Below the pieces are notes generated by a model, which saw only the letters and a list, made by a program, of their open reading frames with translations, did no database searches and was not told the DNA's origin. From the IMG/VR virus record IMGVR_UViG_2648501230_000017: DNA of 4,497 bases; one strand, 5' to 3'. The translations under genes and the position numbers were made by a program. This stretch comes from a virus (lineage: Duplodnaviria > Heunggongvirae > Uroviricota > Caudoviricetes). Positions within the stretch are counted from its first letter, which is position 1. Every line of letters starts with the position of its first letter. Shown one piece after another: positions 1,908 to 2,957 of the stretch.

Positions 1908-2957
1908 ATGATTAATACTGTAAAAATATCCAGTTGTGAGTTAATCAACGCTGATTGCCTGGAATTTATCCAGACCTTACCGGAAAACTCTGTCGATCTG
2001 ATAGTCACAGACCCGCCATACTTTAAAGTGAAGCCCGAGGGCTGGGATAACCAGTGGGAGGGCGACGATGATTACCTGAAATGGCTGGACCAGTGTCTGG
2101 CGCAGTTCTGGCGGGTACTGAAGCCTGCCGGAAGTCTTTACCTGTTCTTTGGTCATCGCCTGGCATCTGACACCGAAATCATGATGCGTGAGCGCTTTAA
2201 TGTGCTGAACCACATTATCTGGGCGAAGCCGTCCGGACGCTGGAACGGGTGCAATAAGGAAAGTCTGCGGGCGTATTTTCCGGCAACAGAGCGCATTCTG
2301 TTTGCAGAACATTATCAGGGACCGTATCGCCCGAAAGATGATGGCTATGTGGCACAGGGGCGCGAGCTAAAACAGCACGTCATGGCCCCGCTGATTTCTT
2401 ACTTTCGTGATGCGCGTAAATCACTGGGAATAACGTCAAAACAGATAGCGGAAGCCACCGGAAAGAAAAACATGGCTTCGCACTGGTTTGGTACCAGTCA
2501 GTGGCAGTTACCGAACGAGGGTAATTACAACAAATTGCAGGCGTTGTTTGCGCGTGTTGCGGCAGAAAAACATCAGCGCGGGGAACTGGAAAAGCCACAC
2601 CACCAGCTGGTCAGCACATACAGTGAGCTGAACCGGCAGTATACGGAACTGCTGAGTGAATATAAAAATTTGCGGCGGTATTTCGGTGTGACGGCGCAGG
2701 TTCCGTACACCGATGTCTGGACGCATAAACCGGTGCAGTACTATCCAGGGAAACATCCGTGCGAAAAACCGGCAGAAATGCTGCAGCAGATAATCAACGC
2801 GAGCAGTCGTCCGGGAGACCTGGTTGCAGATTTTTTTATGGGTTCAGGTTCAACGGTAAAAGCGGCGATGGCACTGGGGCGTTGTGCGATTGGTGTTGAG
2901 CTGGAGACAGGACGTTTTGAACAGACAGTCAGGGAAGTTCAGGATTTAATCGTTTGA
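1908..2957 (+). CDS. DNA amino-methyltransferase, beta-class (N6-adenine or N4-cytosine; PF01555-like), apparently orphan
   Basis: 349 aa. N-terminal motif IV DLIVTDPPY (DPPY at nt 2010-2021), then near the C-terminus HPCEKP followed by the AdoMet motif I DFFMGSGST and AAMALGRCAIGVELE. Motif IV before motif I gives the beta-class order. No restriction endonuclease partner is visible in the window. Confidence 0.93.
   Translation: MINTVKISSCELINADCLEFIQTLPENSVDLIVTDPPYFKVKPEGWDNQWEGDDDYLKWLDQCLAQFWRVLKPAGSLYLFFGHRLASDTEIMMRERFNVLNHIIWAKPSGRWNGCNKESLRAYFPATERILFAEHYQGPYRPKDDGYVAQGRELKQHVMAPLISYFRDARKSLGITSKQIAEATGKKNMASHWFGTSQWQLPNEGNYNKLQALFARVAAEKHQRGELEKPHHQLVSTYSELNRQYTELLSEYKNLRRYFGVTAQVPYTDVWTHKPVQYYPGKHPCEKPAEMLQQIINASSRPGDLVADFFMGSGSTVKAAMALGRCAIGVELETGRFEQTVREVQDLIV

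Follow-up and report, generated by a model that had tools for sequence, protein, structure and literature searches.

A prophage-borne adenine methyltransferase of the M.EcoGII family and the probably structured leader RNA that precedes it

M.EcoGII, encoded by a prophage of Escherichia coli O104:H4 C227-11, methylates adenine in any context and acts on double-stranded DNA, single-stranded DNA, DNA:RNA hybrids and RNA (Murray et al. 2018, PMC5778455). The lysogen does not express this enzyme, whose production slows growth, and its authors proposed that it serves in overcoming host restriction (PMC5778455). The same study placed it in 'a very large family' of enzymes from E. coli prophages, gave M.EcoGI as identical to it at 333 of 349 positions, and named phage 1720a-02 as encoding a very similar enzyme. 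Measured as V0, its activity is 11.12 on DNA and 0.12 on RNA, which makes it about 90-fold faster on DNA (PMC11551740). Activity on DNA is also shown by two reconstructed ancestral enzymes, Anc291 and SUPREM, which were largely context-independent by nanopore direct RNA sequencing (PMC11551740). A published table that assigns classes by similarity to REBASE lists homologues from STEC at about 92–94% amino acid similarity to M.EcoGI and M.EcoGII, with the predicted specificity 'nonspecific'. An EcoSal review groups Mom with M.EcoGII as lysogen-silent and toxic. Stx prophages also encode M.EcoPA8orf6770P, which with PNB-2 is a 16S rRNA methyltransferase of the MT-A70 type carrying a DPPW motif (Gong et al. 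2023, PMC10810198). This enzyme, gp5, is co-transcribed with the upstream genes gp6 and gp7 from a promoter induced approaching stationary phase (PMC10810198).

Here we compare with these systems a methylase gene in the window, by which we mean the whole 4,497-nt stretch of DNA that was analysed. By sequence, its product is a beta-class N6-adenine methyltransferase and a prophage member of the M.EcoGI/M.EcoGII family, an already known and common type of gene. The open reading frame (1908–2957, plus strand) starts with ATG and encodes 349 amino acids. Residues 29–340 match the Pfam family PF01555 N6_N4_Mtase (E=7e-44; 150.8 bits, cutoff 26.7), the matching PHROGs (phrog_67, phrog_6025 and phrog_6952, E~1e-103 to 1e-106) are annotated as DNA methyltransferase, and the PADLOC model for Type II methyltransferases, MTase_II, gives E=1.6e-157. 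In the translation, the catalytic motif TDPPYF places DPPY at D35–Y38 (nt 2010–2021), HPCEKP at residues 283–288 (nt 2754–2771) and FMGSGST at residues 310–316 (nt 2835–2855). The motif order, IV then target-recognition region (TRD) then I, is that of the beta class. An MT-A70 domain and a DPPW motif were looked for in the protein and not found; DPPY is present and PF01555 is the sole significant Pfam family.

An earlier reading of this DNA, made from the sequence only, had identified the same reading frame, the same three motifs and a PF01555-type beta-class amino-methyltransferase, and on all of these the ORF list, the translation and the Pfam search bear it out. It had also placed about 250 residues between the catalytic and AdoMet motifs and presumed that they hold the target-recognition region. 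The spacing from DPPY to FMGSGST is 271 residues; the TRD does lie between the motifs, but it occupies only residues ~160–237 in the published model of M.EcoGII, the remainder being catalytic core plus linker. An AlphaFold2 model of the window methylase, built from an alignment of 27 close homologues and used for fold class only given its mean pLDDT of 65, has a helical middle flanked on either side by an alpha/beta core. When this model was searched against the PDB with Foldseek, the top 46 matches were all beta-class methyltransferases or Type III Mod subunits, the best of them being the beta-class enzymes M.BceJIV, CcrM, MboIIA and RsrI.

The relationship to M.EcoGII is close. [quoted passage not shown] An OCR-corrected guess of the sequence gave no match by exact look-up, and M.EcoGII itself is not among the 90%-cluster representatives. 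By region, identical residues number 126 of 134 in the N-terminal core, 64 of 78 in the TRD (160–237) and 84 of 91 in the C-terminal core. Because M.EcoGII has been shown experimentally to be non-specific, we infer by homology that the window methylase acts on any adenine; the sequence-only reading had held that specificity could not be read from the sequence, and in this respect homology, together with the 'nonspecific' prediction for the STEC relatives, leads to a different answer. The window methylase also appears to fall inside active sequence space, since the more divergent Anc291 and SUPREM are still active and largely context-independent. M.EcoGII, Anc291 and SUPREM share only 69–83% identity with one another (71–78% in the TRD), and the TRD of the window methylase is 82–85% identical to those of M.EcoGII and Anc291.

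We consider it unlikely that the protein is instead an orphan Type II adenine methyltransferase with sequence specificity, recognising a motif unlike that of M.EcoGII owing to substitutions in the TRD. Of the ~35 differences between the two enzymes, 14 do fall in the 78-residue TRD, among them N206, a residue that is D in all 26 compared homologues, so that D206N is unique among the 27 aligned sequences. The NCBI/RefSeq name of the identical protein, 'site-specific DNA-methyltransferase' (UniParc UPI000651BF1C; WP_000611208.1 is the 99.9%-identical copy of E2348/69), likewise speaks of a site, but as a label it is generic. Against a changed specificity, the substitutions are mostly conservative and scattered, Anc291 and SUPREM have diverged much further in the TRD and remain largely context-independent, and STEC homologues similarly close to M.EcoGI and M.EcoGII are the ones listed as predicted nonspecific.

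The window covers the junction between the early and late regions of a lambdoid prophage. Its first part contains the C-terminal portion of a DUF968/NinG-like protein (71–412), RusA (413–778) and, on the plus strand at 775–1329, a Q-like late antiterminator (DUF1133) matched by PF06576 (E=6e-103), PF06530 Phage_antitermQ (E=1.9e-6) and phrog_753, 'anti-termination protein Q-like' (E=8e-78). The Q gene is followed, at ~1408–1440 on the plus strand, by a strong, tR'-like intrinsic terminator, in which the hairpin AACCCGC/GCGGGUU with flanking pairs (-23.2 kcal/mol) is followed by U7; the module common to the window and Stx phages begins at 1426. A second terminator-like hairpin with a T-run, GCCTTCCGCAGTGAAGGC then TTTTTAATTT, lies at 1744–1769 (plus strand) at the end of a small winged-helix ORF. 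A sigma-70 scan of 1330–1907 found no consensus promoter. Beyond the methylase come two tRNA genes on the plus strand, both called by ARAGORN: an ileZ-type tRNA with a CAT anticodon at 3007–3082 (Rfam tRNA, 72.5 bits), named tRNA-Ile in RefSeq and in phiP27, and an argO-type tRNA-Arg (TCT) at 3180–3256 (Rfam tRNA, 70.1 bits). The gene thus sits where the sequence-only reading had located it, between late terminators and a tRNA/cargo module. That reading had also reported no cognate endonuclease, and we found no restriction endonuclease partner either in the window or within 9 kb of the 99.9%-identical copy in E2348/69. In these two settings the gene lacks the adjacent cognate endonuclease by which a Type II restriction–modification system is recognised. 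Among 80 genomes the neighbours of the methylase vary.

Several other elements of the window were observed along the way. The spacer between the tRNAs (3083–3179, plus strand) is 90% identical to the argN tRNA-Arg(TCG) region of phiSTEC1575-Stx2k and drew no ARAGORN call; it is probably the decayed third tRNA of an ileZ-argN-argO cluster. The stx site of Stx phages here holds a 117-amino-acid ORF of unknown function (3367–3720, plus strand; phrog_2873), and the same slot contains a DUF3927 peptide (3801–3887, plus strand) and an IraM-like anti-adapter gene, so annotated in E2348/69 (4153–4488, minus strand). A strong Rfam match to the sRNA STnc100 (RF02076; 3953–4142, plus strand; 132 bits, E=5e-30) ends in a terminator at 4112–4133 and sits past the moron slot, in the region where EHEC prophage sRNAs are described. 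Exact Chi octamers (GCTGGTGG) occur four times in the 4.5 kb, at 40–47 and 2600–2607 on the minus strand and at 1785–1792 and 3824–3831 on the plus strand; 0.17 would be expected, and none of 200 shuffles reached four.

The gene and its surroundings are widespread. It is 100% identical in several E. coli chromosomes from pigs and humans and 99.9% identical in EPEC E2348/69, and among 5426 complete E. coli genomes 1939 contain relatives, with up to five copies in one genome. The sequence-only reading had missed that the gene belongs to a very common and already described family. In Stx2 phages (phiP27 and many Stx2a, Stx2c and Stx2d phages) the methylase module lies directly 5' of the tRNAs and stx, and in mEp460 and Morganella phage IME1369_02 the lysis cassette comes after it. 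The order of Q-like gene, terminators, winged-helix ORF, leader and methyltransferase, followed by tRNAs and stx or by lysis genes, recurs in E2348/69, phiP27, mEp460 and IME1369_02. The window methylase occupies the slot described for the M.EcoGII family, after Q and two terminators and before the tRNAs and the stx/moron site. Some loci depart from this plan or carry further genes. In Rosenbergiella collisarenosi (locus L050, 1174–3645) an 823-amino-acid ORF upstream of the leader looks like a fused, Type IIG-like methyltransferase/endonuclease, which suggests that the slot upstream of the leader accepts defence cargo. The E2348/69 prophage has, upstream of the region matching the window (locus L001, 1984–3979), adjacent genes for an AAA-family ATPase and an HNH endonuclease that are unrelated to the methylase and possibly form a two-gene defence system. 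Deletion derivatives in phiSTEC1575-Stx2k (L085, 2623–3336) and L110 keep only a partial leader and a C-terminal portion of the methylase, and are annotated 'HTH domain-containing protein'.

The reading that we prefer, at a probability of roughly 0.78, is that of a prophage-borne, non-specific, beta-class, SAM-dependent N6-adenine methyltransferase, expressed late in dependence on Q and protecting phage DNA from restriction. No long gene precedes that of the methylase in the late operon of the lambdoid prophage, and its place after the Q-like gene and a pair of intrinsic terminators leads us to expect silence in the lysogen, with transcription only once Q permits RNA polymerase to read through upon induction. 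Adenines would then be methylated throughout the replicating phage DNA, and the packaged genomes would resist many restriction systems with adenine-containing sites, whichever host comes next. The sequence-only reading had likewise suggested self-protection on induction; this is the accepted view of the family, and from a position downstream of the late terminators expression after induction would be expected. Non-specific activity, silence in the lysogen and toxicity are carried over here from experiments on the ~90%-identical M.EcoGII. For the late timing and anti-restriction role of the window copy we infer the same as has been inferred for M.EcoGII in its native phage.

DNA is the likely substrate, because M.EcoGII is so much faster on DNA than on RNA. 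It is very improbable that in the cell the enzyme acts on RNA (the neighbouring tRNAs, rRNA or mRNA of the phage) and regulates induction or virulence instead of protecting DNA. Such a role could draw on the methylation of RNA by M.EcoGII in vitro, on the tRNA genes that adjoin the methylase, and on the other Stx-prophage methyltransferase, a 16S rRNA methylase that needs a small winged-helix partner, given that a small winged-helix ORF precedes the window methylase too. However, that rRNA methylase is an MT-A70/DPPW enzyme from another prophage region and not a homologue, the ~90-fold preference of M.EcoGII points to DNA, and in many phages it is lysis genes, not tRNAs, that lie 3' of the methylase.

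The motif residues of the window methylase are invariant across the 27 aligned homologues, which are 74–95% identical, and comparison with 26 homologues revealed departures from the >=85% consensus at four positions only (T89, Q150, N206 and Y278), of which Y278 is also present in M.EcoGII. The sequence-only reading had named inactivating substitutions relative to active homologues as evidence that would count against it; a search for them found intact motifs and these four departures only, and nothing points to inactivation. That the gene is an inactive relic without function in a defective prophage is the least probable reading of all, for although the prophage that matches its context best (E2348/69) has decayed and contains IS elements and pseudogenes, and truncated derivatives exist in phiSTEC1575-Stx2k and L110, the ORF is full-length and has lost neither its catalytic nor its SAM motifs, the exact protein sequence is found on at least 1000 contigs, and leader and ORF are conserved together across genera.

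Upstream of the methylase there is probably a conserved structured RNA. We compared 80 loci with methylase relatives, one genome per species, ranging from Escherichia to Xenorhabdus at 63–90% amino acid identity. The ~135 nt 5' of the methylase ATG are 78–82% identical across genera, even where the winged-helix ORF is missing or the upstream gene is unrelated, and the 5' boundary of this conservation is sharp, at ~1770. We place the leader at 1777–1907 on the plus strand (~130 nt), on the basis of nucleotide conservation, RNAalifold, covariation and a covariance model. It is non-coding, as judged by 1-nt indels, by reading frames that differ between loci and by the lack of any uORF shared among them. 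An upstream ORF coupled to the methylase through an AUGA overlap was considered and rejected: the open frame varies from 2 to 46 codons, a start codon is often absent, and the overlapping stop is missing in seven sequences. Almost without exception across the genera, a GATC (Dam site) lies 3–6 nt 5' of the methylase ATG, where it overlaps both the SD-like UGAUC and an in-frame UGA.

RNAalifold predicts four helices in the leader, all on the plus strand. P1, the closing helix (UGGGC/GCCCA), pairs 1779–1783 with 1851–1855; within it are P2, a 12-bp hairpin (1784–1795/1803–1814), and the short P3 (1818–1821/1839–1842), and P4 is a separate hairpin (1859–1863/1869–1873). In a MAFFT alignment made from sequence only, 94.7% of cells pair and compensatory changes are seen in 12 pairs, compared with 3.4±1.2 in shuffles (none of 500 reaching the observed number) and 1–6 in slid controls. 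The alignment fitted to the model, covering 54 loci, raises these figures to 96.7% of cells and 14 compensatory pairs, against 4.0 in shuffles. At one position of P2 the commonest pair is U·G, which points to an RNA of the plus strand. The 5' arm of P2 contains the Chi octamer at 1785–1792, which is lost in lineages where P2 covaries. An all-pairs covariation scan for extra helices or pseudoknots gave isolated pairs only.

The leader keeps close company with the methylase. The covariance model finds exactly one match per locus, always ending at the methylase ATG, and of 55 model-positive leaders recovered in an independent pattern scan of viral contigs, 54 adjoin a full methylase ORF and one adjoins a deletion derivative. 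Loci of Xenorhabdus and Photorhabdus have a shorter leader in which only a P2-like hairpin is kept, and retain the winged-helix ORF. An Rfam scan of the whole window returned no match to the leader, and permissive filters on 1740–1930 gave only noise (miRNA models, E~4); its conserved strings were not found in the literature searched. The leader RNA of M.EcoGII-family genes thus appears to be undescribed so far. Identity with one of the known EHEC prophage sRNAs (AsxR, AgvB, HnrS) was rejected, as those lie after moron coding sequences.

Folding of single sequences gives a second structure, mutually exclusive with the covariation-supported fold, as the minimum-free-energy fold in ~40 of the 54 homologues. 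In it, AUGGGC/GCUCAU lengthens P2, and GGUCA...AAGCG pairs with CGCUU...UGAUC. This pairing would cover UGAUC (1902–1906, plus strand), the only SD-like element, which lies just 5' of the AUG and is complementary to GAUCA of the 16S 3' end; the GGUCA complementary to it is at 1832–1836 (plus strand). The alternative fold is 92.6% pairable and its covariation is weak (7 pairs, against 2–7 in slid controls). As judged from covariation and predicted folds, the leader may gate translation of the toxic methylase. Silence of the family in the lysogen would be consistent both with the position behind Q and two terminators and with the predicted SD-occluding fold of the leader.

A fuller scheme, which we regard as possible but rather doubtful, is that the ~130-nt leader is a bistable cis-regulatory element. 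It would alternate between a three-way junction of P1–P3 together with P4, leaving the start free, and the SD-hiding fold; it might be flipped by the 65-amino-acid winged-helix protein, as in Mu Com/mom, and would restrict translation of the methylase to the right lytic moment. The ORF for that protein (1560–1757, plus strand) belongs to phrog_331, of unknown function (E=1.4e-37), with a weak match to the TrmB winged-helix domain (E=0.0026). Of 75 genome loci, 53 carry it immediately 5' of the leader and methylase, with amino acid identities of 37–98%, as do 49 of 52 viral contigs. It was rejected as an obligatory partner, since the other 22 loci retain leader and methylase in its absence. In phiP27 its RefSeq name is 'TrmB family transcriptional regulator'.

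The methylase as such adds little, given that its family is present in about one third of complete E. coli genomes and that the prototype is a commercial enzyme. For annotation, the point is that genes of the M.EcoGII family carry the RefSeq label 'site-specific', probably wrongly and as a systematic mis-annotation. The leader, perhaps with its winged-helix companion, is a candidate new cis-regulatory element. If real, it would provide a new RNA family for phage annotation; if it were a true switch, it would offer a testable answer to how a prophage holds an every-adenine methylase off and then turns it on.

Looking across the systems described, the structurally characterised beta-class N6-adenine methyltransferases CcrM, M.BceJIV, M.RsrI and M.MboIIA, the best PDB matches in both sequence and fold, share the catalytic fold and motif order of the window methylase. 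They differ in being only ~17–20% identical to it and all sequence-specific, with TRDs unrelated to its helical middle. M.EcoPA8orf6770P resembles the window methylase as a STEC prophage adenine methyltransferase that carries a DNA methylase annotation and has a small winged-helix protein as its partner. As a match, this phiPA8 prophage enzyme was rejected: it is of the MT-A70/DPPW type, encoded elsewhere in the prophage, and not homologous.

In phage Mu, translation of Mom is unlocked by the small protein Com, which binds a hairpin in the mRNA. Com is a protein of the zinc-finger type, and Mom does not belong to the SAM methyltransferases. The likeness to the methylase locus lies in a broad-specificity, toxic and late DNA modification, in an ORF of ~60 amino acids upstream, and in an mRNA structure able to occlude the ribosome-binding site. 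By analogy, control of the methylase may resemble that of com/mom, whereas the proteins have no sequence relationship, the small ORF of the window encodes a winged helix and not a zinc finger, and 22 of the 75 methylase loci have no small ORF.

Closest of all are M.EcoGII and M.EcoGI, which share with the window methylase the length of 349 amino acids, ~90% identity, the beta-class motif order, carriage by a prophage and orphan status, and from which it differs, in the case of M.EcoGII, by the ~35 substitutions, with 14 in the TRD, discussed above. Phage 1720a-02, named in PMC5778455, is among the DNA matches of the window (88.8%) and carries a Q–methyltransferase–tRNA module that matches it.
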